Source: Macrostomum lignano (taxonomy: Eukaryota). Taken from it: 64,000 bases of DNA. Where the stretch lies: positions 1 to 64,000 of the forward strand of contig NIVC01000746.1 of assembly GCA_002269645.1 (NCBI GenBank). Direction: 5' to 3'. A program made the translations under genes and the position numbers. Numbering within the stretch: position 1 is the stretch's first letter; each line of letters starts with the position of its first letter. Below are positions 4,791 through 62,385 of the stretch, piece after piece. Under the pieces are notes generated by a model, which had not been told where the DNA came from, searched no databases, and was given only the letters and a program-made list of their open reading frames with translations.

Positions 4791-7263
4791 GATGGGATCC
4801 AGAGTTCTCTGAATGATGTGAGAATGGAGTCAGTGAGGATGGAGGTTTCTGAAGGGATGTTCAAAGGCTTCAGAAAGGCAGAAATATTGACGCACTACAA
4901 TAAATATACTAATAATCATAATCGCTTACAGGTTCTCCATAAACAGGATAAATGATTCCCATAGACTTCCCATAAATAGACACGTCTTCACCACATGTTA
5001 TCTGGCCCTGGAAGTTCCTCTTCAGTTCAGTCCGCGTGTACGAAGTCGAAATGTGTACCTTGAACGACCAGAAGCAAAATTCATAGGGGTCCTCTTTTTG
5101 AGTGCCGAAATGGTTCTAGAATAGTTCTGGAATATCGGCACTTTGCGAAAATTTGTTTAAAAAAATTCTAATATTAAACGAAAGTTTGCAAGCACGGTAA
5201 AGGGATTGATAATTCTAAAGCTTCCGTTCCAGACAACTATAATTAACAGTCCATGACTCAGCTTTATCAAGGCATAGCCGAAGAGAGAGACTTGGCTCTC
5301 TCCCAACCAGCACCAACCCCCGCCCATTTTCCTATTCCGTCCTCAGCTGACGAACCCCGCACACAGAGACCGGATGCCTCTGTACACGCCTGGCCCATGG
5401 AGCCGCAGCTGCGGTCGCTGGCTATGCTGATGCAGCCGGTACGAACGCAACCAGGACTGCTTTTGCTGTGGCAGAAATCTCTGCTGAATGGTTAGGGAGA
5501 GAACTTTTCGTCAGCGGCAAAGCACGGCATAGCGAGAGGCCCTTGGCTGGAATGGAGGTCTGTTGAATTGCTGAATTGCATATCTGGAAGTTTCTATGTA
5601 AACTGCATATCCGTACGTCTGAAGTGGCGTGACGTTGGGTGATATTGACAGAAAAAAATTGATTTGCAGATTAACAGCGAGCTAATTCTGCTCCATGACA
5701 TCAATGATAGTATTGGAAAAAATAGGCATTGGATGCTGATTGCTAGCAGCAATGGCTTCTTGATGAAGAGCCAACTAAATACGTGGCTTAGTAGCACTAC
5801 TATGCTGCAGTTTTATGCAGCTTTCAAAAGACAATGAGAAGTCAAACAAAGCCAATAGCAAGGAAGGGAAATTCTGGAGGAAGTTGGCAACAAAGCGGGT
5901 TGCACTTTTGGATGAAGCATTGTGTATCTCAAGCGCTTCAAGATTAATAAACATTGTCCTACTGACTATCAGCACTGGTTCATCCATCCACAACCGACGT
6001 GCCAGAAGACCTGTCAAATAAACTCATATTTCAGAACGCCGCAATCAACAAACTGCTGTGCAATTCAGAAAAGTTCAGTCCTGACATTTGTCAATAGGAT
6101 CCATTGACAAAGGCAAGGCGACAGTTTGCACCAACGGCTATTTTCGTACCAACGTACTTAACAGTCCCTGTAGAGAGCTGCCTGGGTGGCCCGTTACCAA
6201 TATCAACCATCAAACTCGTCTCTGTCTGCCTTCCCTTCTCTCGCTGCATTACTTTGCCTTTGATCCCTCACAAAAGGCAACTGCAAGGCATCCAAATTGA
6301 TGCATCCAGGAGGATCTGGAGCTGCACAGCAGCCTCGTGCAGTCAATAAACGCCTAACATCTGCCCTATTATTCGGCGACTGTCTCTCTATCCCCTTTTC
6401 GCTCGTCTTTGCTTCATTTCCTCGCTGGCGCTTAAAGACCAGCAGCGTCCGGCTTACATTAGAAGGGCGACATTTCTGAACTGTCTTGCATCCACATCGC
6501 TATTTCCTTTTCCTGGGAGGTCGATGATGATTCACTAAGGTACTTCTTGTACGGCTGCCGCACGGGTGAAAATAAGGTAAAGGAGCGGAGGCGGAACGGT
6601 ATGCAAGCTGGTCCAAACGTCATCCGTATTTGCCAATACGCGCGAGAGCCATTTTCGCTTCCCAAAATAGGATCCCATTTTCATTCCCATCGCTACTTTT
6701 CTTTCCAACATTCGGTAGTGAGGCTCGATTGTGCTGAACACACACGTTGGAACACAGCACTCTTCTGGGATCGGGAGGTTCGGTCAAAATTGGTAGGACT
6801 TATTGTAAAGTCGGGTTGGTCCAAGTTGCAACGGAGGCTGAGAGGCAGATGGTATGCACAGGCCATGCCAGACAGAGGGAGCTGTTCCAACCAGAACCAT
6901 TCCTAACCGCTCCAATGTACCTCGCTCGACCTATCTCCAAACCCCGAAGCTGAATTGCTTTGTACCACGACCGGGCCAGGGTGCAGGCTGCAGAACTTGT
7001 CGGAAAGAAACGATGGAAAAGGAAGGGCGAACGGTTTGCATAAATTCACCGGAAAATACTGGGTTAGTTCGAACTGCCGAAACAGCTGAGCGCCAAAGGG
7101 GAGAAGAAATCATTGCAGCCTCCGCTCTGGCGACTGTGCATGACCTTGCTGTTACAGCTGCCCTGTTGGCGTCTAGTACCTCAGTAACAGCAGGAGCACC
7201 AGCTCCAGCACTGGAAGCACTCGGAGCGGAAACTCATCAAGCAACAGACAGTCAGTTAGTCCT

Positions 7264-9300
7264 ATGACACAGGACGCAATGATCGCATCGCCTCAGTACC
7301 AGCAGCAAATGCAGCAGCAGCAACAGCAGCTTCTGCAGCATCAGCACAACCGAGCCAGGCGTAAGTGCCGCAGGTCACGATGTTACAAAGGATCAAAGAC
7401 TGAGGCCGCCATTCAGTTGACATTCAAAGACGCTGATCCTGATCCGTCATCAAATTCTGATGCCCAGGAGCAGCAGCTGATGCCTGGACGGCAAGATTCT
7501 TCCACTGGCCTGGGCCGCCACTGCCGGAAGAGTCAGCTGGATCAGCTGCGGGGCGATCTGGAAAGGCTGGGTCAGCAAATAGCTTCTCTGGCAATGCGAA
7601 ACGGCAACCGCTCCTCCGTAGTGTCTGTAGCGCCTCCACCGCCTCTAATCCCCACGGCCGAACCACCGAGAGCATCGCAGCAGCAGCAGCAGCAGCCGTC
7701 AGTAAACCGTGACCGTGGCGCAAGCGGCAAGGAGCCAAGCGTTTATGATTCGGTGGACGCGTCGGCTAACACAACAACAGCCGTTGTCGGAGCCACTGTT
7801 GAGGGACAGCACTTGAAGAAGGCTGAACTGCGTGTCGCTGGGACCGACATTACAAAAAGCATATCGGACTCTTCTGATCTTGCTTATCAGCGCCAAGAAG
7901 AGGCTGCAGCTGCTGCTTCAGGCCATGGATTATCGTCGCGACGGTACAGGCGCAAAAAGTCACTTGGTGAAGGCGATGAAGCTCCAAATACCGCCATGCT
8001 CAACAGACACGTTGGTTCGTCAAGGCGCCGAGCAAACAATGTCACCAACAACAATAGTCAGCGGGCATTTGACGGTATAGAAAATAACTCCAGTTCAAAG
8101 TCTCTGATCAGTCTTCCGCGCGGTGAAGATCAGCAGCAGCCGGGGACATCAGAGGTTACAACCGAACAGTCGACGGCGCAGAGCGTCACCAGCGGCCGCA
8201 GTCGACGCGGAGGCCTGCTTAGCAATGAAAAGTCGCCATATCGAGACGATTCGGACGGTCACCTGATCTACGCATACGGCGATGTGCTGAAGAATCGCTA
8301 CCGGATCTCAAAAACGCTCGGAGAAGGCACATTTGGCAAAGTGACAGAGTGCGCCGATATGCAGGATTTTGCTCAGCGTCGAGTAGCGGTAAAAATCATA
8401 AAAAATGTGGAAAAGTATCGCGAAGCAGCCAAGCTGGAGATCAACGTGCTGAAGAAGCTGGAGGAAAAAGACCCGTCAGGTCTGCATTTGTGCATAAAGT
8501 TGTTGAGCTGGTTTGAGTTCTATGGCCACATCTGCCTAGTCTTTGACCTTCTTGGCAAGTCTGTGTTCGACTTTCTGAAGGAGAACGACTTTGCGCCATA
8601 TCCGATAGAGCACGTGCGTCACATTGCCTATCAGCTGGTGCACTCAGTGGCCTTCATGCACGCCAACCAGCTGACGCACACGGATCTAAAGCCGGAAAAT
8701 ATTCTGCTTCTTCGGTCGACCTATTCAACCTTTGTTAATCCAAAGCGCAAGAAAGAAGAAAAAATGCTTGATCGAACGGATATCCGGCTAATCGACTTTG
8801 GTTCGGCAACCTTTGATCACGAGCACCACTCTGCCGTGGTGTCCACCCGACACTATCGAGCTCCTGAAGTCATTCTAGAGCTGGGTTGGTCGCAGCCGTG
8901 CGACGTCTGGTCCATCGGATGCATCCTGTTTGAGCTCTACACGGGCTTCACGTTATTCCAGACGCACGAGAATCGCGAACACCTGGCCATGATGGAGCGC
9001 ATACTTGGCCACGTGCCCTACCGCATGACCAGGAACTCCAGGGCCGGCTACTTCTGGCACGGCCGTTTAGACTGGGACTACCATAGCAACGAGGGTCGCT
9101 ACGTGCGCGAGAACTGCAAACCGCTGCATCGTTACATGCGAGACGAGACACCGGACACAAGAGACCTGTTCGACCTGATGCTGCGAATGCTCGAGTACGA
9201 ACCCGAGGACCGCGTCACGCTTAGCGCGGCCTTGGAGCACGCCTTCTTCAAGTCCATCCCGGCAGAGTGGAGCCTGCCGCCAGTGTCTGTGTCCAACTGA
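7264..9300 (+). CDS. CLK: CDC-like (LAMMER) dual-specificity kinase, CLK/Doa family; uninterrupted 678-aa ORF
   Basis: [29 protein letters not shown] and the family signature [11 protein letters not shown]. The frame stays open upstream to a TAG at 7174-7176 that could be a splice acceptor, so the N-terminus may extend. Confidence 0.95.
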
Positions 9301-10483: not shown

Positions 10484-13400
10484 GCTGAGCCAGCAGGGGA
10501 CAGAGGCACCAAGGGAGCAGCAACCAGAGCCACGGAACAGGTGGCCATCATTTTGAGCTATCATTCTGAGCTGCACAGGAAATTCTGCAACGCCTGTATC
10601 AAGGAGGCTGGCGTGATGAAGCAGTACACCGGGAGTCTGTTGGGACACTGCGAGACGGTGCGGAGACTTTTCAAGTTTTTTACAGAAGCTACTGCTATTA
10701 GTAGCTCAGATGTAGCTTCTGTTAAAGCTTGCTCTGGATTGCACTACAGGGATCTGTAGCCTAGTGGTCAGAGCGTCGGACTCACGACTTGAAGGTCGGG
10801 GGTTCGATTCTTGACCCACTCGAAACAATTTGTGTCATTGAGCAAGACACAACTCTGCATTGCTTCAGTTCTCCCAGATGTAAAATGGGTGCCAGCATTA
10901 GCTGGGGTAATTGAGGGTGTGTGTGGCAACCCCCAGTCCTTTGACTGAACAGCCGTACGCGCAATAGCTGCGGCTGAGCTGTCGGTTGCAAATCTGACCC
11001 TATTGGGGCAGGTGTAATCAAATATTATTATTATACTCAACTGTTGATTACATTCGTCACGCAGATCGAGTGCATAGAAGGCTTCTGGCCCAAGAACCAA
11101 GGCCTGGGCGTTCTTCTATTCGAGTGCTCCAAAGAGTGTCAAAAGTGGTTGTACAGCGACCCGGTGTTTAGGGCTAGCGACTTTCTCGAACAGGTGGAAA
11201 TGTACTGCGTGCCGCTGAGCGTTCCACTGCCTCAAGGTGAGCAATGCTACAATTAATTTAATTAGTTCGCTGGAAGCTGGCACCTTCGCTGATCCCGGAA
11301 CACGCACACAGGAGTACGATAAGACTAAAAATGGTGCACAGTGGCTCTGACATTCTATTTTCGTCGTCAGGCATGCAAAAATTACGTGCCTTAGAAGCTG
11401 GCCCTCATGGGCGCGAATCACATGACAAGTCTTACGTCATTCTCCGTGCACTAATCCAAAACGAATGTGGCCCAAAGACTTGAGAATAAAAGTAGTAGGA
11501 AAGTGGTCCCCTCTACCGCCATCGCACGGGATTGGCTGGGGCACCCGGCCAATGAGCGGAGACGGTGCCCCCCAAAGACGCCCACCCCGACCCCAAACCC
11601 ACCACCGCGACGCACCCACCCCGACCCCAAACCCACCACCGCGACGCACCCACTCCGACCCTAAACCCACCACCGCGACGCACCCACCCCGACCCCAAAC
11701 CCACCACCGCCACGCACCCACCCCGACCCCAAACCGGGCCCCCAGAGGCGCCCACCCCGACCCCAAACCCACCACCGCCACGCACCCACCCCAACCCCAA
11801 ACCCACCACCACCACGCACCCACCCCCGATCCCAAACCCACCACCGCCACGCACCCACCACGATCCCCAACCGGGCCCCCTCCTGTCCTGCAGCCCGTGC
11901 ATCCCATACGAAGGCCTCCTCCTATCCTGCACCCCATCCCATATAACAAGGTCCTTTTATCCAATACCCTATCCAAAACCAATGCCCCCTCCTAATTCCT
12001 ATAATTCCTAAACCCCAATCTTATTCCCTGCCTCACTTACCGCCTTTAAGGCTCTAGCCAAGGCAAAACCTTCATTCCATGCTTTGGCTCTACTCTTCCT
12101 TGCTGTGGCGCGTACAGCGTGAGGTCGTTAGACCTAGACCGCTACTTCTTGGTGGCCAGAGGGCCGCAAGAAGGTCCCGCCACCTCCTGTTGTGTGGGGT
12201 TGGATTCGGGGTTCGGATTGGTTATTGCTATGGAGCTGGTTTCTAAATGGCTGAGTGGTCCCCGGAAGGGCTTCTGATTTGCCGAGAGTTCCCGCGAAAG
12301 GGCTGTTGTGTGAGGTTGAATTAGGGGTTCGGATTGGTTATTGCTATGGAGCGGGAGCTGGTGTTGCTCACCAACTCCCGTCGTATATAATCTCGCGCAC
12401 AGCTGGAAGGAAAGCTCAAAGTTTTTGACAGTGAACAAAATGGACTTCAAGACATTATCGAACAGATTTCGAATCGGCGTCAGGTCGCACTCGAAATGCA
12501 TCAGCATCAGAAAGTGGTACAAACTTGGCGAAGAGTATCGACCAGGTCTACCTGGCATGGAGCTCACCGTCCATCAGTTTTGCCACTTGGGCAGCCTGAA
12601 GGAACGACTGGAAGAGTCTGCAAGAAAGTGTATCGATGCGCAATGCCTTCTGGGCGGCAACAGGCAAGTGGTTGTGCAAAATGGCGTAATCACACTCTGG
12701 CGCCTTCCAACTGTACTCGGACCGCCGGGCGCCTAAGGCACGCCTTACCGCTTCCTACTACACTTTGGCGCGAAGTCTGGGCTCAAAAGCAATGGGTCCT
12801 TGACAAAATTGACAAGTGAGAGTCTCCGGTCGAGCCACCGATCGGCGATCCATAGTGGATGGGATACCACCCTACGGAGCCTGAAGAGTGTGAAGCATGG
12901 GCAGCAAGGCTTGCACTCGACCAACTGATGCAAGTACCTGACAGGCAGCCGGCAGAGTGGGAAGACCACTGGGAGGCCTTCCAAGCAGTTCAGGCTGAAT
13001 TTAGAAAGAGATTTACAGCCAACAGCCTTCATGCCACCAGCCACCAATGAAGCGACGCGCAATGCATGAAGCGACAACTGGTCATTTCGTCAATTAACTT
13101 TTTTAATACAGTTTTGAATCATAATACTGATCATGCACTTGTATATATTGCTTTGTCATTACTGACCATAATATTGCCAATAAAAGAAACATAAAAAATG
13201 TTTCATTTTCGTAAGCATTGTTGCACAAACACAATATAGTCGCATTCGCGTTTATTTTTTCTTATCTTTTGTACACAAAAAATACAGAAGTAAAGTTACA
13301 ACAAAAATATTATTATTTTTAATCGGTGCATAGGCAGATCTCACTACTACTGTTATGCTGTAGAGGAGCTCAGATCGAGTCCAGCAAAGTAGGTTCGGAT

Positions 13401-16400
13401 GCTTGGTCTGCATGCAAAATGCGGGTGAGAGCATCAGCTGCAGTCTGAGCCTCAACCACGCTGCGAGCACCGGCTATTATTCAACGATATGAATGAAGCA
13501 AAATCAACTTTACAGAAGCAGTAAACTCGAGCACAAGTCCGTTAAACATTTCCGGCTCATAGGTACCCCGATGCGGCCATTTAGACTTGACTTCCCCCAA
13601 CCGGAGTGGATGCCGACTCGCGGGAAAGGCCGTCACAGAGGTACCAGTATGTAATAGTCTTGATGCGAATCTGGGGCAGACTGGTCAATCGCAAGAAGTC
13701 CGCACACAGCCTCACAATCTTCTCCGTCTCTGCGAGAGCCTCCTCCAGGCTTTTGGCTCCACAGACAGACACTTGTCCGATAGGATACACCAGCGCGGTT
13801 ACTCGATGCTGCCTGCTCTTCATCACCACTGCCAGTGTTCGAGGATGAACCAGGCGATGGCGGATTGTGTGATGCTGAGGCAGATGAAGAGTCATGAAAT
13901 TCGCTAGTTGTGGCAGACCCACCCGGGTCGCCAGATCGGCTCCTGTCACGATGTTTGTCACGCGAATTGTTGCGACCATCTTTAGACAATCGAGAGAAAC
14001 GCCAGTGCCTGCTGCAGATCGTTACTTTTATAGACCCGTAGCCGCGAGGCCGCAGCCAATCAGCGTACAGCGTCACCTTGTCCAGGGCGCAGGGTAGCAC
14101 GTACTTTGAGGCACTCGGAAAGGCCAGGTGTGCTAGGTCGTAGACAGGCTGTAGCAGCAGACGCGATAGGAACTGGCACTTGACGTCCCCTTTGCTGAAT
14201 ATCGGGCCTTGCAAGTGAGAGATATCGCTCCAGAGACAAGAGTAGGGTCGGAACCCACTCCTGTCCCAGTCTAGACCGTGCCGCTTATTGGTGAGCCAGT
14301 AGCAGGTTCGTCGCTGTCCTCTATCAAAGAGCTCAAAACTGTGCGGCGGCCGGTAGCAATAGTAATGAGCCGTCGTTTGACCGCATGCAAACTCAACCCA
14401 TGCAATTTCCTTAATCACAAAGTCTTCTGTTTTGTAGAGGTGCGGAAATCCTTCAAAATCAATGACAATCATCTTGGCCACTTGATCCACTTGCCGTATC
14501 CTTTCTGAGACTGAGTCTTCTTATAGTCTTGCAGTCGAGGTTTTTTAGGACTGGACTTTTCTTCCCGAGGCTTTTCCAGCAATTTTGTAGTGTTCAGACC
14601 AACTGCAGACAGGTACGTGGTTTTCTTGAAGACACGTAACAAACTCATTAATCCCATTCGGGGGCTGAAGGTACTTAGAGTACGTATCTTTAACTATGAA
14701 ATGCAGCAGGTCCACGATATTTGAGTTGTACAACGGTTTACCATTGACAGAAACTTCATATATATAATCTATGCTAATCGACTTGCACTTTACGGTTATG
14801 AAGGTAATCAATGCCTGCAGACGATGATGCCATTTCTGATTCACCGTCAGATATAACATCTCCTTCCACTGCAGTTCTTTGTGAATTACTGGAGACTGTT
14901 CTTGGGTCGCACTTGCCTGCAGCTGCTGCACACAACGCTCGTCTCTAATCTTGCGCAACTGTTTTTCCGCCTCTAGCTCGGGTTCACAGACTGTCTCCAT
15001 GCCCCTCTGATTCACAAGTGCCTCATACTGCAACCGGGGCACCATTATCATTTTCTTGTACATGTCTTTTTATACAAGTGAGAATCAGAGGAAGACAACG
15101 AAGGATATGCGCGTGTGAGAGATTGCGCCGAGCCTCTTTCACACTTTTGCTTTGTGCAACAAGCCGGAGAGTATTTCGATATCGCCTGCGTCTCCGCTTC
15201 AAGCTATCTTCACAACCAACTTTTCCTGCTAGTAAGTTGATAATACACTCGACAAAAAAGCAAATGGTGCTTTTATTTGCATAGGTAAGTATGCAGCGAC
15301 GCAAGGATATAGTGCCTTCACAAAAGACAGTTATTAGTGCAAAGTGTTTATCCATGTTTAACTCAGTGCAGAGACTGGGCGATTCTTACAGATAAACTCG
15401 CTGCGGGGCCTCATCGGGGAGAAAATTGGCTCTCAGGCGCAGTTCATGGGGTGAAGCGGGGTGAAAATCAAGCAGCAGATAGCGCTGATCTCCATCTCGC
15501 ACCAATCGATCCATCAGTTCTACTAGCAGAGTGAGCCGTTTGGGAAAGCATTGCTGACTTAAAGCTTGGACCGCAGAGGTGTCTCTGGGGTTGTTGAAAA
15601 ACAGCATGTAGGTGCAATTTATGCTAATTGTGCGCCACTCTCTGCCTTTGAAAAATAGATTTGGCGTGATGAGAATGACAAAGCAGGGCTTGTGGTGGGC
15701 CTCACGGGTGAACAGGTGTCGTAGCTCTCGACTTGCAGCTGCTTCATCCAGTAAATCATCAATCACAATCAGGTCATGGGGCTGCAGATCCAAATTCGAT
15801 AATCCTTCACATACTTGCACTCCTAGCCGCCGCAGAGTCGCGTGGAGTTCCGGCTGCGGGCATCCGTGATACCAAATCATCCGCTTGGGAGGTTGGTCGA
15901 ACAGAAGCAGTCGTTGGGACAGCAGCCGCAAACAGAATGTTGATTTTCCCGCTCGAGAAGGGCCCGAAACCATCATGCAGCTGCCTATCCGCAGTCTGGA
16001 ATCAAACACCTTGCAACTGATTTTTGAGTCTGAGTATGATTGCATCGTTTTGAGCCACAGCTGCCGGATGCAAGGCCTTGATGAACAAGGCATTATAAGA
16101 CATTCTCTTATGTAGTCGATGGATCAAGTAAAAAATGCAATACCAGCCGCAAAGAGTTGACGAACTGGGCTGAACAGGGACCGTATTCCATTGTAGCACC
16201 ATCCGCGTTGGTTTAGTTTTCTTTAACCAGCTCTTCATATTTTTACTCAAGCCTCTCAAAGACTTGAAAATTTCACAATGCACTTTACTGGTTGCTACTC
16301 CAGCAATCCAGTGACCGCACTCATCATTCCATGGCTCATACAAAATGAAGCAGCAGTGCATTGCTGGAGTACGTAACAAGTCATTGTAGCGGCCAGCTGG

Positions 16401-19400
16401 AATTTCAGCACATTGCATTGAACCCTCAAGCTGATAATATAGCGACAATGGATGAGAGATCGTGTAGATGCAGTTGATAAAAACTGATTCCAAGCAGAGC
16501 CAACTCATAATCCAAAGCAGAATCCAGCAGCACAGGATGAAGCAGCTCAGCAGTAAAGTTGGCCGGGTCATCATCGGGGCCGGACATTACCTGAAATCTT
16601 TGCCTTTTCATATTTTTGTTAAGTTTTTTACGTCAATCCAACTGGGTTTTTCTGAGTCGCGCCACTGAACCAAATACCGAATCTTTCCACTATTCAGCTT
16701 CTCAATGTTGAGAACCTTGTCAATGGTCCACAGCTTCTTGTTTCCAATCACTTGCTGCATTTCCGGCTCGTAAAACTTGCCTTGGGGTGGAGGGACTCGA
16801 TTTCAAATACTTCCTCACTCCATCCCCTTGTGTATCCCTTGGTGAATGGGTTGGTCGGATTGCGAAGAGAGATTCGCACCATCATTCCTGCCTTGAACTT
16901 TGGTCTGGAGACCTTTTCACGAGTCTCAGGAAGCTTCCCATCATAGAGCCGGTGCCAAATTTTCATCTCGTTTGACTTGTTGACATCAACTGGTCGGCTT
17001 TGAATACTCCGATAAATACTCTGGTTGTATGCCTTTACTAGGGGCTTAAGCACATCGGTCCAGGTTAATGTTGACTTGTGACGAAAGTACCGCCACATTC
17101 GGGATTTCAGTGTGTGGTTCCATCTCTCAATGACTGCGCATTTCTGGTCACTGCTTGACGTGAATGCATGCATTTTCTGGTTTACGCAGAGGGCTCGGAA
17201 CTGGATGTTACAAAACTCTTTTCCGCGGTCGGTCCGAACTGCTCGTGGGCATCGAGGGTGAGCTCGATTTAGGATCGCTTCGAATCCGGCTGCAACTTCC
17301 TCGGCTGTCTTGCGGCGCACCGGCTGAGCCCAGGCAAATTTGCTGAGCACATCGATGCAACATAGAATATATCGTACGCCGCCACTGTACTTGGCAAACG
17401 GCAGCATTTCAACCAGGTCCAGTTCCCACTGGTCATCCATGCCCCGCACCACAATCGGTGCTCGACGAAAGTTTTTGCGTTTATCTCTATGCAGTGTGTA
17501 GACATCTTGGTCTCGGAGCCACGTCTGTATCTTTAATTGAAAGTAATGTTAAAACTGGAAATTGCTAGCATTAAAATACATGCATTTCAATGGGAATTTT
17601 TACCCAAGTGTGTGCACGAAAAACCTCGACACTTTGCATACTATTTAACACTGTGCACGAAAACTTACATACTCGTGCACAAAGTACATGCATTTCAATG
17701 GGGATTTTAACCCAGACCTGTGCACAAAAATGACTCATTATGGTAAAAATATTAATGTGAAAGAACATTTTTCTCTCCTGCAGTGTACCAGATATCATTG
17801 AGTAAAGCTAAGCATGTATTTATTATTATTCAAAATATAGTATGTTCGTATTAAATTTACATGCATATAGTTGTTTAAAATCAGATATTTGCAAAGAAAA
17901 ATTTTATGGTGAGAAAACGAGCTTGCTAGTGTCCAGACAGATCGCACTGGCCGATATACACTAGCCTGTCGAGCACAACATTCGTCTTGAGAATGTGCAC
18001 TAGAACTAAATCCCCGTTGAAAATCATCTGCTCGCGGAACGCTGGCTTGGCCACAGGCTTTCCTGCTGAATTAACCAGCCGGTAGTCCACTTGCTTGCGA
18101 ACATTCTCCAGGGTCTTTCCAAACAGGGGGTTGTTTAGCAGCTTGTTGCAGTCTTTCTTGAACTCATTCTTAGCCTTTTGCACGATGCTCCATGCGGTAG
18201 ATAATAAACAGCGGTCGACACGTCAACACACCGAGTGGTCCTGATTATCCAGCCACTGCCATTGCGTAGGTACTTCTCTATCCGGTTGAGGATAGTCTGC
18301 ATGTCGTCAGAGAAGTAGTGCTCCTACTCACTCCGAATAAGAGAGTGGATCTTGGCAGCAAACCAGGCGGTGTTCTCGGCGGCGCAGCTTCCATTAATGA
18401 TGCGCTGCATCAGGACCCCGAGGCGCAGCTGAACCTTGATGGCGGTTCCTGGCTCACGTTGATGCTGGGTGATCAAGTCAATGAAAGCTTGACGAGAGTT
18501 TTCCAAAACGTTCCTCGCGTCGCCGCATGCACTGGCCCGGTAAAGTCGGGACCTGCCATCAAACGCCTCCTTGATCAGTTGAAAATGAATCGTTTGGGGA
18601 GTCATCTGACTTAAATAGTGCTGGTATCGCAGGACATACCGCATAGTGCTCCTCAATGCCCCCGATTACTGATGACTCGCAAAAGTCGCAAGTTATTTGC
18701 ATTTTTGTTGTATGTTCAATTTAATCTAAAATAAAAAAATCTACACTGAGTCCCGGGTGCTTCGCTTATAAAGGGTCCTGAACCCCAGCTCCTGCGGGGC
18801 GTGTTGACCAACCAAATCGTGCATCAGGGACCTCTCGACCAATAGAACCCCTTCTCCACATTACTCGGCAATTCCGAGGAAATCACTTCTAAATGCTTGC
18901 TCGACCAATAGAATCTCTTTCCCTCTCTACTAGGAAATTCCAAGCAATCGGACCCTCTACCCGTTGACCGATCACACTGAAACTCTGTCTTGCGTGTCAC
19001 CACCAATGGACACTCATTCACAACTCGATACCCACTCTTGGACACTCACTTAACTCACCCTTGGACACTCACCCAGACACTCAGCTGCCCAACCCCTCCT
19101 CTGGCCTGCTCGACCGGCCTGCCCGACCCCCACCTTTGGCCTGCTCGACCCCATCCTTGACCTGCTCGACCCCATCATTGACCTGCTCGACCCCATCCCT
19201 GGGCCTGCCCCACCCCTACCTCCGGCCTGTCCCGCCCGCCTCCGGGGCCTCCTCATCGCTGATTGACTCCCCCTCGCTGATTGGCCAGCCATTCATTGGT
19301 ATGGATGCACGGGGTGCAGGACAGGAGGGGGGCTTGGTTTGGGATGGGGTGCAGGACAGGAGGGGCCCGGTTTGGGGTCGGGGGTGGGTGCGTGGCGGTG

Positions 19401-19848
19401 GTGGGTTTGGGGTCGGGTGGGGGTCTTTGGGGGGCCGTCTCCCCGTATTGGCCGGGTGGCCGGCCAATCCCGTGCGATGGCGGTAGAGGGGACCACTTTC
19501 CTACTACTAATAAAGATTGCAACTAGACTCATTCAACGTCCATACCGGTAGACTACCCAAGAGTTTCAATACCACACTATTCGAAGAGTCTCCTAAATTT
19601 AACGCATGAATTGATATAACTTCCAGGTTACGCAGTCTTGTCCATCATGAACTTGGACGTGCAGTTCAAAGAGATCTTCAACGGCGAATATCTTAAGCGA
19701 CACGAGGATGGCGTGCGCAGCTGCCAGGGGATTCCATGCGTTGCCATCACCGACAAGGTGCAGAAGGTGAAAGGGATGCGAAATCCCAAGTACTTCATTG
19801 TTGACGCGTGGAAATGCCGTCAAGACTTCGACGCCTGGTACAAGGCAG
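10484..19848 (+). CDS. Spliced host gene with two DUF1330-like repeats; exons 10484-10657, 11065-11236, 19627-19848 (possible upstream exon ending 10051; 3' end unresolved)
   Basis: AG/GT boundaries are phase-compatible (0, then 1). The joined translation gives KQYTGSLLGHCETIECIEGFWPKNQGLGVLLFECSKECQKWLYSD and a second unit GYAVLSI...DKVQKVKG..PKYFIVDAW....FDAWY, resembling the DUF1330 pattern (kyGGrfl..vevlEG.wp..vvvieF.s...A.aWy.S). Family call by eye. Confidence 0.65.
10749..11035 (+). mobile_element. tRNA-derived CORE-like SINE, family 1 copy A
   Basis: A box TAGCCTAGTGG (10757), B box GGTTCGATTC (10801), central segment GTGTCATTGAGCAAGACAC...CTTCAGTT...TGTAAAATGGG resembling the MIR CORE, (ATT)n tail; similar copies at 30786 and 38840. 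Confidence 0.8.
11491..11940 (+). repeat. Left terminal inverted repeat, with about 9 copies of a 34-bp GC-rich unit
   Basis: 11491-11536 is the exact reverse complement of 19463-19508; unit CCCCGACCCCAAACCCACCACCGCGACGCACCCA is tandem over ~11580-11875. Confidence 0.9.
12208..12395 (+). promoter_or_regulatory. Putative Pol II promoter of the PC4-like gene
   Basis: Direct repeat GGGGTTCGGATTGGTTATTGCTATGGAGC (~12208 and ~12323), each with an inverted CCAAT; TATATAA at ~12385, about 55 bp upstream of the ATG at 12440. Confidence 0.5.
12440..12819 (+). CDS. PC4/Sub1-like ssDNA-binding protein, probably two tandem PC4 domains with a frameshift near 12700-12735
   Basis: ISIRKWY..GEEYRPGLPGMELTVHQFCHL aligns with PC4 [28 protein letters not shown]. 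A second unit LGGNRQVVV..GVITLWR continues in another frame as ALPLPTTLWREV....VLDKID (stop 12819). Confidence 0.7.
12859..13050 (+). CDS. Small Polinton ORF of unknown function (63 aa, Trp-rich and acidic)
   Basis: ATG ORF directly after the PC4-like gene, followed by an AATAAA near 13179 in the AT-rich convergent terminator zone. Confidence 0.35.
   Translation: MGYHPTEPEECEAWAARLALDQLMQVPDRQPAEWEDHWEAFQAVQAEFRKRFTANSLHATSHQ
13370..13979 (-). pseudogene. TATA-binding-protein-like gene (both TBP repeats), disrupted by one frameshift (~13645-13660) and an in-frame TGA (13481-13483)
   Basis: Repeat 1: NIVTGADL...AVVMKSRQHRVTALVYPIGQVSVCGAKSLEE (TBP NIVSTVNL...[30 protein letters not shown]). 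Repeat 2, read by hand in the +1 frame: PLRLGEV...TYEPEMFNGLVL...LILLHSYR*IIAGARSVVEA...LTRIL (TBP PIRLEGL...SYEPELFPGLIY...LLIFVSGKVVLTGAKVRAE...IYPIL). Confidence 0.85.
13633..14490 (-). CDS. DEDD/DnaQ-like (Maelstrom-like) nuclease-fold protein; conserved part is about the first 145 aa
   Basis: IVIDFEGF, VIKEIA, YRPP.SF, RTCYWLT..HGLDW..G..PY, IFSKG..K.QFL, VYDL, CALDKV..YADWL match a motif series I recognise from Polinton-type ORFs. The remainder is low-complexity read-through over the TBP gene. Confidence 0.6.
   Translation of the reverse strand: MDQVAKMIVIDFEGFPHLYKTEDFVIKEIAWVEFACGQTTAHYYCYRPPHSFELFDRGQRRTCYWLTNKRHGLDWDRSGFRPYSCLWSDISHLQGPIFSKGDVKCQFLSRLLLQPVYDLAHLAFPSASKYVLPCALDKVTLYADWLRPRGYGSIKVTICSRHWRFSRLSKDGRNNSRDKHRDRSRSGDPGGSATTSEFHDSSSASASHNPPSPGSSSNTGSGDEEQAASSNRAGVSYRTSVCLWSQKPGGGSRRDGEDCEAVCGLLAIDQSAPDSHQDYYILVPL
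14025..14066 (-). promoter_or_regulatory. Putative TATA + CCAAT promoter of the TBP-like gene
   Basis: Minus-strand TATAAAAG at 14032-14025, about 46 bp upstream of ATG 13979; a CCAAT box at ~14058-14062 lies within the ADWL codons of the upstream ORF. Confidence 0.6.
14545..15063 (-). CDS. Conserved Polinton hypothetical protein
   Basis: EVSVNGKPLYNSNIVDLLHFIV...PPNGINEFVTCLQENHVP matches the recurrent Polinton motif G(S)NIVDL...P.G..EF...L...NVP. Confidence 0.65.
   Translation of the reverse strand: MYKKMIMVPRLQYEALVNQRGMETVCEPELEAEKQLRKIRDERCVQQLQASATQEQSPVIHKELQWKEMLYLTVNQKWHHRLQALITFITVKCKSISIDYIYEVSVNGKPLYNSNIVDLLHFIVKDTYSKYLQPPNGINEFVTCLQENHVPVCSWSEHYKIAGKASGRKVQS
15023..15355 (-). 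CDS. Small basic Polinton/adintovirus protein next to the ATPase (cupiennin-like)
   Basis: RRCILTYANKSTICFFVECIINLLAGKV...KRRRRRYRNTLRLVA resembles the conserved R.AIL..A...LI..I.EC..N.L.G.V...K..L...K..LR.LA pattern; located directly downstream of the ATPase. Confidence 0.6.
   Translation of the reverse strand: MDKHFALITVFCEGTISLRRCILTYANKSTICFFVECIINLLAGKVGCEDSLKRRRRRYRNTLRLVAQSKSVKEARRNLSHAHILRCLPLILTCIKRHVQENDNGAPVAV
15386..16093 (-). CDS. A32/FtsK-like genome-packaging ATPase (likely start MQSY at 16045)
   Basis: Walker A GPSRAGKST, Walker B LIVIDDL, FTREAHH, RTISINCTY..FNNPRD and YLLLDF.P, all typical of Polinton ATPases; ORF intact. Confidence 0.92.
   Translation of the reverse strand: MPCSSRPCIRQLWLKTMQSYSDSKISCKVFDSRLRIGSCMMVSGPSRAGKSTFCLRLLSQRLLLFDQPPKRMIWYHGCPQPELHATLRRLGVQVCEGLSNLDLQPHDLIVIDDLLDEAAASRELRHLFTREAHHKPCFVILITPNLFFKGREWRTISINCTYMLFFNNPRDTSAVQALSQQCFPKRLTLLVELMDRLVRDGDQRYLLLDFHPASPHELRLRANFLPDEAPQRVYL
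16002..16475 (-). pseudogene. Adenain-like capsid maturation cysteine protease, N-terminus fused to the penton remnant
   Basis: GHW, EIFKS (usually EYFDS) and QPSSSTLCGWYCIFYL motifs; no native start survives because homology begins at the deletion junction. Confidence 0.8.
16476..16611 (-). pseudogene. N-terminal ~45 aa of the minor capsid (penton) protein
   Basis: ANFTAELLHPVLLDSALDYELALLGISFY matches the Polinton penton start (ANFT..L..P..L...YEVAL..I.Y); its ATG overlaps the integrase stop (ATGA, 16608-16611). Confidence 0.7.
16608..17535 (-). pseudogene. Retroviral-like (c-)integrase with C-terminal chromodomain; 5'-truncated, with a frameshifting deletion near 16785
   Basis: WLRDQDVYTLHR, DDE triad in WELDL / TDRGKEF / VIERWN, KGYTRGWSEE. 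After the shift another frame reads GKFYEPEMQQV...WTIDKVL...RYLVQWRD...SWID to the stop at 16608. Confidence 0.92.
17940..18656 (-). pseudogene. Protein-primed family B DNA polymerase (pPolB), heavily deleted
   Basis: N-terminal region reads through a TAG (18324-18326) into ILNRIEKYLRNGSGW...YYLPHGAS, then jumps directly to the motif B region KNEFKKDCNKLLNNPLFGKTLENVRK...KT.V.LD..VYIG. Exonuclease, motif A and motif C are absent. Confidence 0.85.
19290..19508 (-). repeat. Right terminal inverted repeat
   Basis: Reverse complement matches the left end exactly for 46 bp and imperfectly beyond that, with only 1-2 copies of the 34-bp unit. Confidence 0.9.
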
Positions 19849-27830: not shown

Positions 27831-28488
27831 TCAACAAAATAGTTTGTTAATTTTCTAGTTTTTCATACACTTTTTATAATATTGTGACCAAGGTTTAAAT
27901 ATGTGCATAACTGCATAGATTTTTAGTATAATAGAAAGGTATAAAAAAGAATAGCACTTTTGACCCTAGTGCCTATATTACAACGTTAATGCTTTAAAAA
28001 CAGTTGCAAGTTTGAAGAAGATTGGTTATGCCATTTATTTTGAAATCTATTATACACATACAAGTATATAGGACAAGCTTAAATGACAGAATCGATCTCC
28101 ATATTGATTAATTTGATTATACAAATATCTATAATAGCTTTACTTATTATTGTACTTTAATAAAGATATACAACTATTAATTTAAAAAGAATTCTAGGTT
28201 TTTAGCCTAATTTTTGGTATTTTCCAAGTCAGATAAAAAAGAAGTTTGCTTTTGGCTAACTATCAATAAATTCATTGATTGCATTCAGTTAGACAAAGTT
28301 AAATGAAAAAATCAGAATTGAATTGAATAGAATAGAATTTGAATTGAAGCATCCATTACTACAGAATCCAATGTTAACTCCTGGTTGCAGTGCAGCACTC
28401 ACTAGCAGAGCCGCAGTCCAATAGCACACAGAGTGCTCTCTGACTCTGCTTGGCAAACAGACCTATAGTATTAGCCTAGTCAGATCCA

Positions 28489-31400
28489 ATGGAATCAGTT
28501 GGCGAGTTCGAATACTCCACAAGAGAGCTGATTGGTCACGGCGCCTTCGCCCTGGTTTACAAAGGCCGGCACAGGGTGTCGCAGCATCGCAAAGTGGCCA
28601 TCAAAGTTATTCAGAAAAAGAATCTGGCCAAATCGCAGAATCTATTGAGCAAGGAGATAAAAATTCTGAAAGAGCTGAGCACTCTCAAGCACGATAATGT
28701 GGTTGGCCTGTTGGATTGTATTGAAACTGGGGATCGGGTGTTTCTGGTCATGGAATACTGCAATGGCGGCGACCTGGCTGGCTATCTGATGGACAAGAAG
28801 ACATTGTCTGAGGACACCATCCGGCATTTTCTGCGCCAGATCGCCAGGGCTATGCAAGCTCTGGCCAGTAGGCAGGTGGTGCACCGCGACATGAAGCCGC
28901 ATAACTTCTTATTGAACTGGCCAGAGCCAATCTGGACCAGCTTGGAGAACGCTATCAGTCCCAGGGAGAAGTACCCACCGGCGCATCAGATCTCCATTAA
29001 AATAGCCGATTTCGGCTTTGCCAGGTTAGCAGTGGCTTGGAGGGATTAATTAGTAATGTCATCTTACTTCTGACACATCAGAATCTTGATCTGACACATC
29101 AGAATCTTGAATCTGGCACATCAGAATCTTGGATCTGACACATCAGAATCTTTGATCTGACACATCAGAATCTTGTATCTGACACATCAGCATCTTGAAT
29201 CTGACACATCAGAATCTTGTATCTGACACATCAGAATCTTGGATCTGACACATCAGAATCTTGGATCTGACACAGAATCTTGGATCTGACACATCAAAAT
29301 CTTAGATCTGATACATCAGAATCTTTTGTCTGACACATCAGAATCTTTGATCTGACACATCAGAATCTTTTGTCTGACACATCAGAATCTTGAATCTGGC
29401 ACATCAGAATCTTTGATCTGACACATCAGAATCTTGGATTTGACACATCAGAATCTTTGATCTGACACATCAGAATCTTGGATCAGACACATCAGAATCT
29501 TGGATCAGACACATCAGAATCTTGGATCTGACACATCAGAATCTTGGATCTGACACAGAATCTTTTGTCTGACACATCAGAATCTTGTATCTGACACTCA
29601 GATTCCCATACTACGTCGCAACCCAAATCCCCGCAGGTTCCTAGCAGACGGCAAGATGGCGGGCACCCTATGCGGCAGTCCGATGTACATGGCGCCAGAG
29701 GTGCTGATGTCCTGGAACTACGACAGCAAAGCGGACCTGTGGTCCATCGGCACCATTGTGTACCAGTGCCTCACTGGCACCGCGCCATTTCATGCTAACA
29801 CGCCGCAGGCGTTGAAAGATTTCTACGAACGGAACGTCAACCTGCGACCGCGGGTGCCGCCGAACACCTCGCCGGAGCTGACCGACCTGCTGCTGCGGAT
29901 CCTGCGCCGCAATCCGGCAGACCGGATCAGCTTCGAGGACTTCTACCAGCATCAGTTCCTGTCCCTGGCACCCGCCTCTGCTGTACCCATGCCGCTGCAG
30001 CGGAAAGCGTCTCAGGGCGATAATCTCAAGCTGCTGTCGGCGTCGCCGCTGTCTGAGGCTTCGCCACCTTTGCTTCAACAGCAGCAGCAGCTCCAGCAAC
30101 AGCATCGGCGACCGCTGCCGCCAACTCCGACTGCTTCAAGTCAGCGCCAGCAGCCGCGGAAGCAGCAACAGCAGCAGCCGGCACCGGCCGGGGCTCCCGC
30201 CGCCGAGCCTGGCCACGACTTCGTGCTGATTGGCCAGGACGGGGCCGAGGAGCCGCCAGTTGCCGGTGCCGCCGCCGCCGCCCGCCTGTTCCAAGCCGCT
30301 TCCGGTAGCGGTAGCATTGAACGGTCGAGAAATCTGCTTCGGCCGTCGCCTTCGCCTTCGCCTCCGCCCCCTACTGGCTCGACGGCGACGGCGCCTGCTG
30401 GAACAGCGCCTGCTTCTGCGGCTGCTGCTGGAACTGTGGCCAGGGCGGTGCCAACCTCGCCTGGTGACAGGGGCAGCAGTAAAGACCTGGTCGCTGGCGG
30501 ATTCGATTTGGCTAAGATGTCGCCTCCGCAGGTTTGTGTCTTTGCTATGCTACTTTTATAGTAATTGCATGAGTTTGCTAGAGGATTTTACGTCTAGGAT
30601 TTTGCTAGACGACTGTTGAGTCACGAGGGCATCACGTGACTTGTAAAAGAAATGCAAATGCAAAAAAAAGCCGTCCGAGAGTCTTTGTGTCAGCGCTTAA
30701 CTGTCTACTAACTCAAGTAGACTCAAATGCGAAATGCGAGATTTCATTGCATATCACGTCTCATATCTGCTACAAAGCACAACATGATAGCCCTGTGATT
30801 GGAGCGTCGGACTCACGACTTGAAGGTCGGGGTTCGATTTCCGATCCCACTGGGACAATCTGTGTCCTTGAGCAAGACACTTAACTCTGTGTTGCTTCAG
30901 TTCACCCAGCTGTAAAATGGGTGCCAGCATTAGCTGGGGTAATTGAGGATGTGTGGCGACCCCCCAGTACTTGGACTGAACAGCCGTACGCAGCCTTCAG
31001 ATGCGCCGCGCAAATAGCTGCGGCTGAGCTGTCAGTTGCACATTTGGCCCGATTGGGACAGGTGTAATTAAAAAAAACACTAGCCCTACTCTCTACGCAC
31101 TACTCAATCATGAGTAGTTCATTCCGCACATTCACCGAGTTGCCCTGCCGCCATCTGCCCGGTCTCGCCCAGGTCCAGTTCAGCTTGGAACGTCGCCGAC
31201 GACGTCGCGGAGATTCCGGCGGCAGCGGCTCGCCGGCGTCGCTGGCTGGCCTCGCTGATGTCGGCGGATTCGGCGAGGCCTCGCCGCCGCCCAGCTCGCT
31301 GGTGCCGTTCTACATGGCCGCTGCTGCCGCCGCCTCCGCGCCTGGCAACCTGGACGCCTCGGGCGCCGCTGCTGGCGACGCCGACGCCGATGACTACGAC

Positions 31401-49779: not shown

Positions 49780-50487
49780 TTCTGTGTTGAAATAAAAACA
49801 TAACATTATAATAAAATTCTTAATTACTAGTAGACCTGATATTGCTTTATTGATTATAAATGATTTTGACTCTTTCTTATTACTAAGAATAAGTATAGAC
49901 CTATTTTATCTATTTTTAAACAGTTCATTTAATATTCCTGCTTTAAAATCACTTACAAATAATACAGTATCTATTTTATTGCTAAATATGATTTTAAGTT
50001 ATAAAGCAATTAGGAAAGACAGAATAGATTTTTAATAATAATATATTCTAACATATCTAATCTAAGTATATGTACTATAGTCTATAATTTAAGAAAATCT
50101 TAGCCTATCATATTCATAGACCTAGTACACCATTTTACCTCCTATTTTGAACAAAGTCTTGTTCAAAGAAAGAAAGAAAGAAAGAAACAAGCAGAACTTC
50201 AATTCAAACATTTTAAGAAATAACAGCACTTGCGGAAATTCATTTCAAACAAAGTCCCTATCTATTGAAACAGAAGAAATTCAATTCAGACTGTCTGTGC
50301 CCAAAATTGTCCCCGGGTGATGCGCATGCACAGATTTAAAATTCAAAAGAAACAAAGTCACATTCTGTTTTGACAAAGGGATAAAACACTACATATCGAC
50401 GAACATAAGAATAAACTGAAAAACAGGAACAAGGCAGTGTCAGTTGGCCAACTTAAGACAACTAACTATCAATTGCCAGTTCTCTCT

Positions 50488-50742
50488 TCAGAGTGGCCTT
50501 CCAAAAGGAGAGCGGCCTTCCACAGGACTCAAAAATGAACTGTATGGTGGAAGCCGCTTGACCTGAATGGAGTCCAGAATCTCATTTTCTGCTGCTTTTC
50601 TGCTCTTCCTGACCTTAATCATGTATACTGTTGACCTCTTGACTCCAAGTTGGCGCGCTAGTTCCACAAAGTAATCCTCACAATCAGCAGCCCTGATGAT
50701 ACTGTCTCTGTCACTGTTGCTTAAACAATAGCTCACTGCCAA
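50488..50742 (-). pseudogene. N-terminal HTH of a Tc1-like transposase
   Basis: SNSDRDSIIRA...VELARQLGVKRSTVYMI fits the paired-like HTH (R..I......IA..LGV.RSTV..I); no DDE domain follows. Confidence 0.6.
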
Positions 50743-51107
50743 GGCTGTTGTTATATGATATCTTCATTGAATTCTGCTTCAAATTCATTGATTCCATCTT
50801 CTAGCAATTCATCATCTTCTTCAATCTTATCTTCAGCATTCATATCGTTTCTTATTGCGCAATGATTGTATAGTTATGCAGTACAGGAAAAACAAAAAGT
50901 TAGATTAATGTACTAAAAATGTACTTGTATCTAAATGTATTTGCAAAAAACTCTGTCAAAATAGAATGTGACTTTGTTTTTTTTATTTCAAATCTGCGCA
51001 TACATGTCACTCAGGGACAACTTTGGCCACAGACAATCTGAATTGAAGTTCTTCTGTTTCAATAGATAGGGACTTTGTTTGAATTGAATTTTTTCAAGGA
51101 TTGATAA

Positions 51108-51283
51108 CATACATGCGCAACCTTTGGAATCACCCGGCCGTTTCTATAGGCAACACACACATGTAAGTCGCTATTGGCTGAGAGCAGTCACGTGACTACT
51201 ATATTCTGTCCAATAGCGACTTACATGTGTGTGTGTTGCCTATAGAAACGGCCGGGTGAATCCCTAGGTTGCGCCCAAGCATG
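51108..51283. mobile_element. 176-bp palindromic hAT-type MITE nested in the Tc1 right TIR
   Basis: Starts CA and ends TG; long internal palindrome (CACCCGGCCGTTTCTATAGGCAACACACACATGTAAGTCGCTATTGG and its reverse complement); exact 8-bp TSD ATTGATAA at 51100-51107 and 51284-51291. Confidence 0.85.
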
Positions 51284-52300
51284 ATTGATAATTCTTATAA
51301 AGTGTTTGAATGGATGTTCTGCTTGTTTTTTTGAACAAGACTTTGTTCAAAATAGGAGGTAAAATGATGTAGTTGTTGTGTTTAAATTTCAATAAATATT
51401 TTCTAATCTAGTATAAATAGATTGTCAATTATTTAACTTGCCTATGAGTTGCATATATACTTTTTTCATAATTTTCTATAAAAAAGTAAAATTTAAACTA
51501 AAGACAATATATCATATAACCTATTCTTATAAATAACTAAATAATCCACTTTTCTCTATAATCAAGAATCTTTACAATTGGTATTACTAGTAAATTCAGC
51601 AGGGTAGTTAAAATGGAATTCTTAATGGACTGAAAATCAGCTGATCCTTGCTTTTAATTAAATAGTACTATTTATATTTAATTAACAAGAGAAACTTACC
51701 AGCATTTTCTCCCACATTAGCAATAGATTCATCGTCATTACTACCCTTTATGATTTGGCCAAAGGTAGTGTTATGAACAGCAACTGTACTTGAGATTGAT
51801 GCAATAGACTGTAGGGTGGCCATATTTCAAATAGTTTCACTTGAAATTTTATGGTCACTGTCAAACAATAAGATCGTTAGATATAGATCATTAACACCAG
51901 TTAGTCACTAATACTGTGTTTTCTTCAATATACTTATTTATCTTACGTTCTAGTGCAGTACTGTTTTATTGATAAGACAAGTATTAACTGAATTTAAAAT
52001 AAACAGACAGTTTGTTCAGGGCAGTTTTGCCAGTGTGCTTGATAATACTTTATTTCTAAGAAAATGAAAAACTAAATGTGTAAATAAAAGGAACCACGTT
52101 GTAAACGCTTTATGCGTAACAGCATTAGTAAAATTTAAAAATGAAATGCAGAGTGAAACACATACCACATGATTATTGTTAAAATAGCATTAAATTGACT
52201 ACGATACTCTTATCTTTGTGCTTAAGCACAACTCGATGATTTTAAAGGTAGTCAACTGTTTCGTGTTCTTAACACATCTGTTACAACCTGTTTTTGATCT

Positions 52301-62000: not shown

Positions 62001-62385
62001 TTCTGAAAAAGCTGGCAGTCAATAAATCATTAGTCTCCTAATGTTGCGAATAGCAGAAAAAACTTTTCACTCAAAGCCATGGCCAGTGCAATTTTTGATC
62101 CACTTTTTTTCCTCGCTGCGGTTTCGAATTTCATCCCGAGACGGGGCAGGAAGAGCAGGAGACAATAAATTTTACAAAGAATTTCACGACTCGCTGGTCC
62201 CGACCCGATGGGCCGTGAAAATCGACTCTCACAGATAAAGATTTTTCAATTTCTATCCGGTTTGTCCAGCAGCCGGTGGTCGATGACTTGATTCTCTGCT
62301 GTGCGCTCGTAAAACCAGAAAAAATCCTCCCTATAAACATTCTTTCCAGTGCCAGCAGAGAGCCAAGCAACTTGAGACTGCGATC

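Follow-up and report, generated by a model that had tools for sequence, protein, structure and literature searches.

An older, decayed insertion of a putatively trans-mobilised, polymerase-dead Polinton lineage in Macrostomum lignano

The stretch of Macrostomum lignano DNA analysed here (contig NIVC01000746.1, positions 1 to 64,000; below, the window) holds an 8,018-bp Polinton at 11,491-19,508. Comparison with its relatives in the same genome, which we call family A, suggests with a probability of roughly three in four that it is one older, further-decayed insertion of a non-autonomous lineage resembling defective-interfering genomes. This lineage would carry a dead arm of foreign origin and be mobilised by a helper in trans, with private decay of the window copy following later. 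The window copy itself is an ordinary dead member, and its value is as a lead to the family.

The insertion and its genes

The element is a true insertion, because on contig C19, which carries a homologous empty site, both flanks meet over a single AATAAA. The exact AATAAA target-site duplication (TSD) and the 46-bp identical terminal inverted repeats (TIRs) of the first-pass annotation were both confirmed. Exactly 46 nt are identical between the ends, followed by 92% identity over ~143 nt and by subterminal 34-bp repeats. In 15 sisters the perfect stretch is 33-191 nt, inside TIRs of ~0.2-1.1 kb, and 46 nt is unremarkable within the family. Polinton TIRs start with short AGT repeats and the termini of the element match this pattern, giving the copy both the 6-bp TSD and the AGT-repeat TIRs of a Polinton/Maverick.

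On C19 the host flank has a homologue at 90-95%. At 10900-11040, 450 nt left of the insertion, there is a short repeat of high copy number (1,425 candidates), and AT-rich nested inverted repeats at 50126-51371, with arms of 49, 120 and 47 nt, are possibly a small DNA transposon. The host kinase genes of the window are presumably CLK-like (7177-9300, plus strand, one long frame), ULK/Atg1-like (28480-30561, minus strand) and AGC-like (52301-53026, minus strand). An ORF at 62287-62874 on the plus strand has a signal-peptide-like start and about ten GAYSGFLG-KR repeats, and we take it to be neuropeptide-precursor-like. Genes of these kinds mark the host as an animal.

The features of the element, with the basis of each, are as follows.

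11485..11490, no strand: left 6-bp TSD AATAAA (single copy at the empty site on C19)
11491..11940, plus: left terminal region, family-A type; begins AGTAGT, shares 46 identical nt with the right end, then has eight 34-bp repeats at 11,547-11,895 (sequence)
12330..12439, plus: CCAAT-like and TATA-like promoter ahead of the PC4-like gene (read from sequence, without chance control)
12440..13094, plus: PC4-like gene; sisters have 231 codons, whereas this copy has a frameshift near 12,729 and is shortened near 13,019 (Pfam, sister comparison)
13376..13979, minus: TBP-like gene, 199 codons and two repeats in sisters; frameshift near 13,644; TATA and CCAAT-like boxes just upstream (Pfam, sister comparison)
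13633..14472, minus: open frame whose first ~150 codons form a DnaQ/Maelstrom-like nuclease domain; its tail overprints part of the TBP-like gene (ORF, Atlas match, pN/pS 0.10)
14469..15063, minus: conserved 198-codon ORF without assigned function; frameshift near 14,612; homologue in family C (sister comparison)
15023..15355, minus: conserved 110-codon ORF, open (ORF)
15386..16093, minus: packaging ATPase, open frame, Walker A and B (ORF, motifs)
16002..16356, minus: 3' part of a putative Ulp1/adenain-type protease gene; start lost in the 2.2-kb deletion (sister comparison)
16357..16376, no strand: private deletion junction, ~2.2 kb lost; 20-nt filler with a 12-nt inverted copy of DNA at 16,296 (sister comparison)
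16377..16611, minus: 5' stub of the presumed minor capsid gene; frameshift near 16,483 (identity inferred from position)
16608..17548, minus: RVE integrase, chromodomain at the C-terminus; private ~50-nt deletion at 16,784 causes a frameshift ahead of the chromodomain (Pfam, sister comparison)
17570..17900, no strand: AT-rich repeated spacer present in both types of arm, where crossovers are likely; the second pPolB deletion is near 17,900 (arm comparison)
17938..18177, minus: out-of-frame pPolB remnant that includes motif B and corresponds to ~residues 950-1032 in the long-arm polymerase (alignment)
18186..18690, minus: pPolB N-terminal remnant (residues ~4-168); shared junction ~18,185; frameshift near 18,593 (alignment)
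18700..19295, minus: family-B-like promoter and subterminal DNA of the dead arm (comparison with family B)
19296..19508, minus: right terminal region, family-A type; 46 nt perfect at 19,463-19,508 (sequence)
19509..19514, no strand: right TSD AATAAA (sequence)

Read from the right end, the minus strand carries the pPolB remnant, the integrase with its chromodomain, the minor-capsid stub, the protease tail, the ATPase, the 110- and 198-codon ORFs and the nuclease-like and TBP-like genes; the PC4-like gene on the plus strand faces this row. Only ~250 of the ~1,236 pPolB codons are left, short of a complete protein-primed PolB, and the copy is a non-autonomous derivative. The N-terminal remnant is probably part of the terminal-protein domain, going by a published account of the pPolB N-terminus (10.1101/2024.03.18.585575).

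The integrase has a Pfam rve match above cut-off (E 2e-11). The ATPase has Pfam AAA matches below cut-off, is a P-loop ORF with Walker A and B motifs, and is syntenic in family C, a distant Polinton family. It had been called intact, together with the accessory ORFs. The word applies to its open frame only, because the gene differs from one sister by 10 substitutions; the 110-codon ORF and the nuclease domain are also open, whereas the PC4-like and TBP-like genes and the 198-codon ORF are frameshifted. The protease, truncated here, has in a sister ORF a Peptidase_C48 match below cut-off (E 0.009) and the His and Gln-Cys motifs. The ‘stripped core’ described earlier is accurate for pPolB, integrase and capsid, but the protease is not wholly gone, as its 3' three quarters remain.

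The major capsid gene is absent from the window copy and present in sisters. Across the 2.2-kb gap, the sisters complete the presumed minor capsid gene and also have an 89-codon ORF, a major capsid gene of 423 codons and the beginning of the protease gene. The single-sequence model of the capsid protein reached a pLDDT of 30, and a model based on a 16-sequence alignment of the sister protein (pLDDT 83.5) was used instead; its best Foldseek match is the mavirus major capsid protein (E 2e-15), with Sputnik also matched. The presumed minor capsid gene has no Pfam match and lies one gene away from the major capsid gene, as in other Polintons (PMC4028283).

The nuclease-like, TBP-like and PC4-like cargo recognised in the first-pass annotation is present (TBP PF00352, E 1e-8, above cut-off; PC4 PF02229, E 3e-4, below). 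The sisters have the same cargo genes, which goes against the counter-case of cargo-less sisters. Across copies pN/pS is 0.10 for the nuclease, 0.21 for the protease, 0.23 for the integrase, 0.26-0.29 for the capsids, 0.44 for the TBP-like gene, 0.55 for the PC4-like gene and 0.59 for the ATPase, rough values that pool short and long forms and non-independent pairs and carry no transition correction. As all lie between 0.10 and 0.59, the backbone genes appear to be under purifying selection, and the TBP-like, Maelstrom-like and PC4-like genes are family genes that appear to be under the same constraint.

That the TBP-like gene is a TBP homologue is well supported by its sequence. The protein has two repeats (Pfam, two stretches), and the 35 PDB sequences that it matched at E<=0.01 were all TBP or TBP-containing. 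TBP has four DNA-intercalating phenylalanines and an acidic TFIIB stirrup; here the second-repeat Phe pair and the EPE stirrup are invariant in all seven aligned sequences, and the first-repeat pair is a Tyr and a non-aromatic residue. A search of the genome, in which 150 of 202 candidates were scored, returned mostly matches of 35-40% identity. All six distant contigs examined have the TBP-like gene beside a nuclease gene and the Polinton core genes of family C, and the two contigs whose far end was read have a PC4-like gene there too. In a quick TBP tree with long branches, the family A and C genes group (SH-aLRT 91, unstarred) and the donor is not placed. The three closest database proteins are on contigs of 0.9-2 kb. 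Outside the M. lignano genome, none of 40 metagenome loci had the TBP-like gene beside Polinton genes, and none of 110 pattern matches in viral contigs was confirmed. Family C (C100, C1196, C1580, C382, C38, C1407 and ~100 more TBP-like matches, many scoring identically) is the larger family, and its gene order has PC4 before the integrase and pPolB facing TBP.

The nuclease frame overprints the TBP gene over 128 codons in family A (window 13633-13979) and 109 in family C (L083:3214-4303), with the same frame offset. Synonymous shuffles reached this length in 111 of 5,000 trials for family A and 11 of 5,000 for family C. In the Atlas the nuclease falls with unnamed, mostly arthropod clusters (0.96), with Maelstrom (0.86) as a lead only. 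The PC4-like protein of family A scores 20.8-22.9 bits against a Pfam cut-off of 25 (PDB MoSub1, E 0.03; in the ESM Atlas, only matches under 0.9), and that of family C scores 33.2 bits, above cut-off.

TATA and CCAAT-like boxes precede the PC4, TBP and pPolB genes, as read from the sequence without a chance control, and the TBP-like protein would most likely act at these promoters of the element's own. PC4 folds bind single-stranded DNA in repair, replication or transcription, with an example in phage T5 (PMC7145618), which makes roles in replication and in transcription equally likely. The PC4-like protein may serve replication rather than transcription, in which case it would most likely bind displaced single strands in protein-primed replication. 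Where the first-pass annotation saw a basal-transcription module of the element's own, the TBP homology has held up; the module itself is conjectural, as the PC4 fold also serves replication and the nuclease resembles the known polinton ‘mael’.

Shared and private lesions

Independent deletions in the pPolB, integrase and capsid genes had been proposed. All three lesions exist, but those in pPolB are inherited. The junction at ~18,185 is common to 17 other contigs among the first 28 examined. It is continuous in 28 of 40 scored genome matches; eight more, on four contigs, are split by 1.7 kb, and four are distant long-arm matches. The window copy also has the second pPolB deletion, near 17,900. 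The pPolB deletions are thus not events of the window copy.

The family census behind these comparisons combined a DNA search that scored 33 of 135 candidates with a terminus pattern that found 63 ends, starting from 28 contigs with more added later, and its copy counts are lower bounds. The loci examined account for nearly all 63 termini. Five single-end matches were checked: one is the left part of an element, and four have no element genes within 6 kb.

The dead arm is carried by at least 19 contigs besides the window, which reduce to 17 sites after merging C5126/C2126, C3493/C2079 and C1131/C1769. Exact two-sided TSDs, all different, flank 13 of the 17; the others comprise one 5/6 match, one match across two contigs, one site in a microsatellite and one that is single-ended. 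As the ~18,185 junction recurs at 17 sites, 13 with exact and different TSDs, it is very likely that a polymerase-dead lineage was mobilised in trans. The satellite lineage suspected by the first-pass annotation therefore stands for the pPolB-dead state but not for the 8-kb stripped core. Simple decay in situ of a full-length Polinton, at this locus only, was the alternative given there. It is an adequate account of the capsid, integrase and frameshift lesions, but the sharing of the pPolB junctions among sites with different TSDs refutes it for pPolB, and as an account of the whole element it is extremely improbable.

The remaining lesions look private. What had been read as a capsid deletion junction at ~16475 is only a frameshift near 16,483, at which the window differs from 21 of 21 copies; the large deletion, about 2.2 kb, is at 16,357-16,376. 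This junction was found in one of 40 scored matches (50 candidates), the window itself, although a unique junction does not distinguish deletion before integration from deletion after it. The integrase deletion sets the window apart from 19 of 20 covering copies (the remaining one is cut by a stretch border) and the TBP frameshift from 24 of 25 (the remaining one is rearranged there). C33 alone shares the PC4 frameshift. Contigs of four sequencing runs show the sister forms among the matches listed; the window-only junctions are not among these matches, and such contigs show presence, not absence. In the trees the end branch of the window copy is ~0.02 in four of five, against medians of 0-0.003, and is among the longest.

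The 8-kb form might instead be a minimal satellite that was trimmed before integration and mobilised as such. Its ends and TSD are perfect, and other doubly deleted forms have integrated more than once: C1131 and C460 have in common a deletion of the minor capsid gene and most of the integrase, with different TSDs. With C33, a second copy of its insertion site, only partly readable, the 2.2-kb deletion might also be early. Against this are the single occurrence of the capsid junction when nearly all termini are accounted for, and the frameshifts in the cargo genes. The 20-nt filler at the large junction includes 12 nt that repeat, in inverted orientation, DNA 60 nt away; templated filler of this sort is a trace of end-joining repair, and it fits repair in the chromosome. 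We consider a pre-trimmed satellite improbable. No other readable copy has the capsid loss, the integrase lesion or the TBP frameshift, so later decay, and not a lineage, is the most likely explanation of the 8-kb form.

Two right arms on a common backbone

Family A has two right-arm forms, long and short, on a common backbone. The long arm carries its own pPolB of ~1,236 codons (Pfam DNA_pol_B_2) and a TIR near 1 kb, in an element of about 14.3 kb when not rearranged, and is found on 11 contigs, or 8 sites after merging contigs with the same flanks. The short arm joins residues ~4-168 to ~950-1035 of a polymerase, and the usual short element, of about 11 kb, retains the integrase, the major and presumed minor capsid genes, the putative protease and the ATPase. 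The capsid-integrase region of most copies, short or long, is 96-99.8% identical to one short copy, which suggests that the family is young. The long-arm polymerase is uninterrupted in only one of five copies read at nearly full length, so a present-day helper is not established; small frameshifts in some copies may be assembly errors.

Three fold-back elements of inverted family halves (C862:327172-340125, C592:149057-159651 and C1016:331990-336311) each have an exact 6-bp TSD, and those on C1016 and C592 are built of two dead arms. Together with the deletion common to C1131 and C460, these elements suggest that the integrase can also act in trans and that rearrangement preceded integration. 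C1863:195104-200743 is a 5.6-kb element (TSD AGCCAA) with little beyond the long-arm polymerase region and capsid and protease fragments. In C460 and C1769 a 44-bp unit of the ATPase gene, equivalent to window 15796-15842, is expanded to a tandem array.

A second Polinton family, B, seems to be the source of the dead arm, which appears to have been shuffled with the long arm on shared backbones. At the protein level the N-terminal remnant of the short arm shares 51% identity with the long-arm polymerase and 89% with C13, a family-B copy with different termini; its pS is 0.21 to family B and 0.78 to the long-arm polymerase. Both pPolB junctions also occur with B-type termini, in C1794, C3293 and C1489, and C317 and C16 have the first junction only. 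The right arm of the window copy is B-like in its inner part and A-type over its last ~210 nt, so that cis-acting ends of the putative helper's type have been kept at both ends.

Short and long forms are interleaved in four of four backbone trees, with 5-8 label changes and groupings that differ by region, and none of 200 bootstrap trees gave one origin. As the remnants, in contrast, form one group (89/82) with deeper branches, arms and backbones appear to recombine. Strong support is confined to a few branches of each backbone tree (1-8 starred), and gene conversion or polishing could account for part of the mosaicism. In short-arm copies the N-terminal remnant often has an open frame. Selection for its retention as a terminal protein is not supported: pN/pS between short-arm groups is 0.53-0.70 (out-of-frame control 0.66-0.83), and 8 of 10 copies of one subgroup have a stop.

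The polarity of the exchange could be the reverse: a B-like polymerase native to this backbone would have died, and the long arm would be a later rescue, a foreign polymerase captured behind a duplicated left end. The long-arm TIR is a ~1-kb copy of the left end that stops just before the PC4 start, with pPolB behind the same promoter, and the remnant tree is deeper than the long-arm spread. The TBP and nuclease genes of C13 are also near those of family A (pS 0.08-0.12), as close as or closer than the remnant, so C13 is itself mosaic and the direction of arm exchange is unproven. But PC4 and the termini of family B are as far from family A as the two polymerases are apart (pS 0.69 for PC4 and 0.78), the same dead arm occurs with B-type termini, and none of 17 candidates offered a donor for the long-arm polymerase closer than 68-70% DNA identity. 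We regard the reverse polarity as unlikely, though the least so of the alternatives.

Another possibility is that autonomous insertions were given the short arm later, by ectopic gene conversion, or that the mosaic pattern is an assembly artefact, with no trans-mobilisation. Both arms are flanked by shared repeats and TIRs, and some sites that are present twice in the assembly have different interiors (C291/C2385, C254/C1157, C1131/C1769). Conversion would require a 3-kb length-changing event at 17 sites, two-ended matching TSDs speak against mis-joins, and the dead-arm fold-backs on C1016 and C592, with their own TSDs, have no simple polymerase-bearing precursor. This reading is improbable too, slightly more so than the pre-trimmed satellite. 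Insertion sites are doubled in the assembly at C5126/C2126, C254/C1157, C291/C2385, C1330/C414 and C746/C33, and some interiors differ. With the flank homologue on C19 this points to haplotype or whole-genome duplication, and copy counts were merged by flank because several sites occur twice.

Under the preferred reading, that of a dead arm from family B mobilised in trans, the arm would have arisen in family B by the first deletion and then the second, recombined onto family A behind an A-type end, and spread. The A terminal protein and polymerase from long-arm copies would recognise this end in trans, and the short form, ~3 kb shorter and still coding the integrase and capsid genes, would spread as a cheater. 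Arms and backbones would recombine, probably on co-replicating linear genomes. The window copy would then have suffered the 2.2-kb loss and accumulated its frameshifts, probably through end-joining repair in the chromosome.

Significance and known systems

Whether animal Polintons replicate as free linear genomes is an open question. A young family with shared replicase deletions, fold-backs and arm swapping is the footprint expected of such replication, and family A gives sequence-level markers with which it could be tested by observation. Mobilisation in trans also suggests how polB-less polintons move, and a TBP-like gene kept in two distant Polinton families would be an unusual step towards transcriptional independence in a small nuclear DNA virus.

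A more ambitious picture, which we hold only tentatively, is of a germ-line helper-cheater system. The dead arm from a sister family would act as a selfish allele, trading places with the live arm while linear genomes co-replicate, and would by now be twice as frequent; the fold-back and doubly deleted forms would be a swarm of defective-interfering type that became fixed in the chromosome. Together with PC4, a dedicated viral TBP of ancient origin, its gene overprinted by the tail of a Maelstrom-like nuclease, would drive the element's own TATA promoters, a small transcription kit that is not known from animal Polintons.

The 2006 Polinton paper reportedly described non-autonomous Polintons. 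A full-text literature search, which took in few subscription papers and neither Repbase nor the adintovirus figures and supplements that could list such genes, turned up no published PC4 gene or conserved TBP gene in animal Polintons; within the same scope, it turned up no account of a foreign dead arm swapping with a live arm in Polintons.

Defective-interfering genomes and cheater viruses are shorter than their helpers, keep the cis-acting ends, lose the replicase, and give rise to further deletion and fold-back forms. The short form is like them in having the same replicase deletion at 17 independent sites, helper-type ends, and deletion and fold-back forms. Unlike them, the family-A forms are integrated and inherited, and their dependence on a helper and interference with it are putative.

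The family belongs with the Polintons/Mavericks (Polintoviricetes; adintoviruses) by its 6-bp TSD, AGT termini, RVE integrase with chromodomain, packaging ATPase and putative Ulp1-type protease, the double jelly-roll capsid of the sisters and the pPolB of the long form, a gene set described for Polintons (PMC4028283, PMC6431247). It differs in its size of 11-14.3 kb rather than 15-25 kb, in the lack of the polymerase at most sites, in the TBP-like and PC4-like genes and, in the window copy, in the missing major capsid gene. Polintons have been defined by pPolB and integrase (PMC5499653), and vertebrate Mavericks are mostly defective (PMC8097293). A TBP homologue is labelled in the legend of a MELD virus figure (PMC8502044, section 3.4; bioRxiv 10.1101/697771). 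It resembles our case as a TBP-like gene on a polinton-related genome and differs in being a figure label only, from non-animal datasets, with no PC4 in the main text.

In small eukaryotic dsDNA viruses, modules for replication and for morphogenesis enter new combinations (bioRxiv 10.64898/2026.10.13.758929), whereas here the swapping takes place within one genome, at very recent depth, and involves a dead module. Mobile polintons without polB have a published precedent: in butterflies, polintons without polB have been amplified beside polB-bearing relatives, with a ‘mael’-associated group (bioRxiv 10.1101/2025.02.07.637071). Like the short form, they are mobile without polB, and their ‘mael’ gene resembles the nuclease-like gene. 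In that account the loss of polB accompanies LINE or LTR cargo and no mobiliser is named, whereas in M. lignano the dead arm is a remnant of what seems to be a second Polinton family, present at 17 sites against 8 for the long form and recombining with it.
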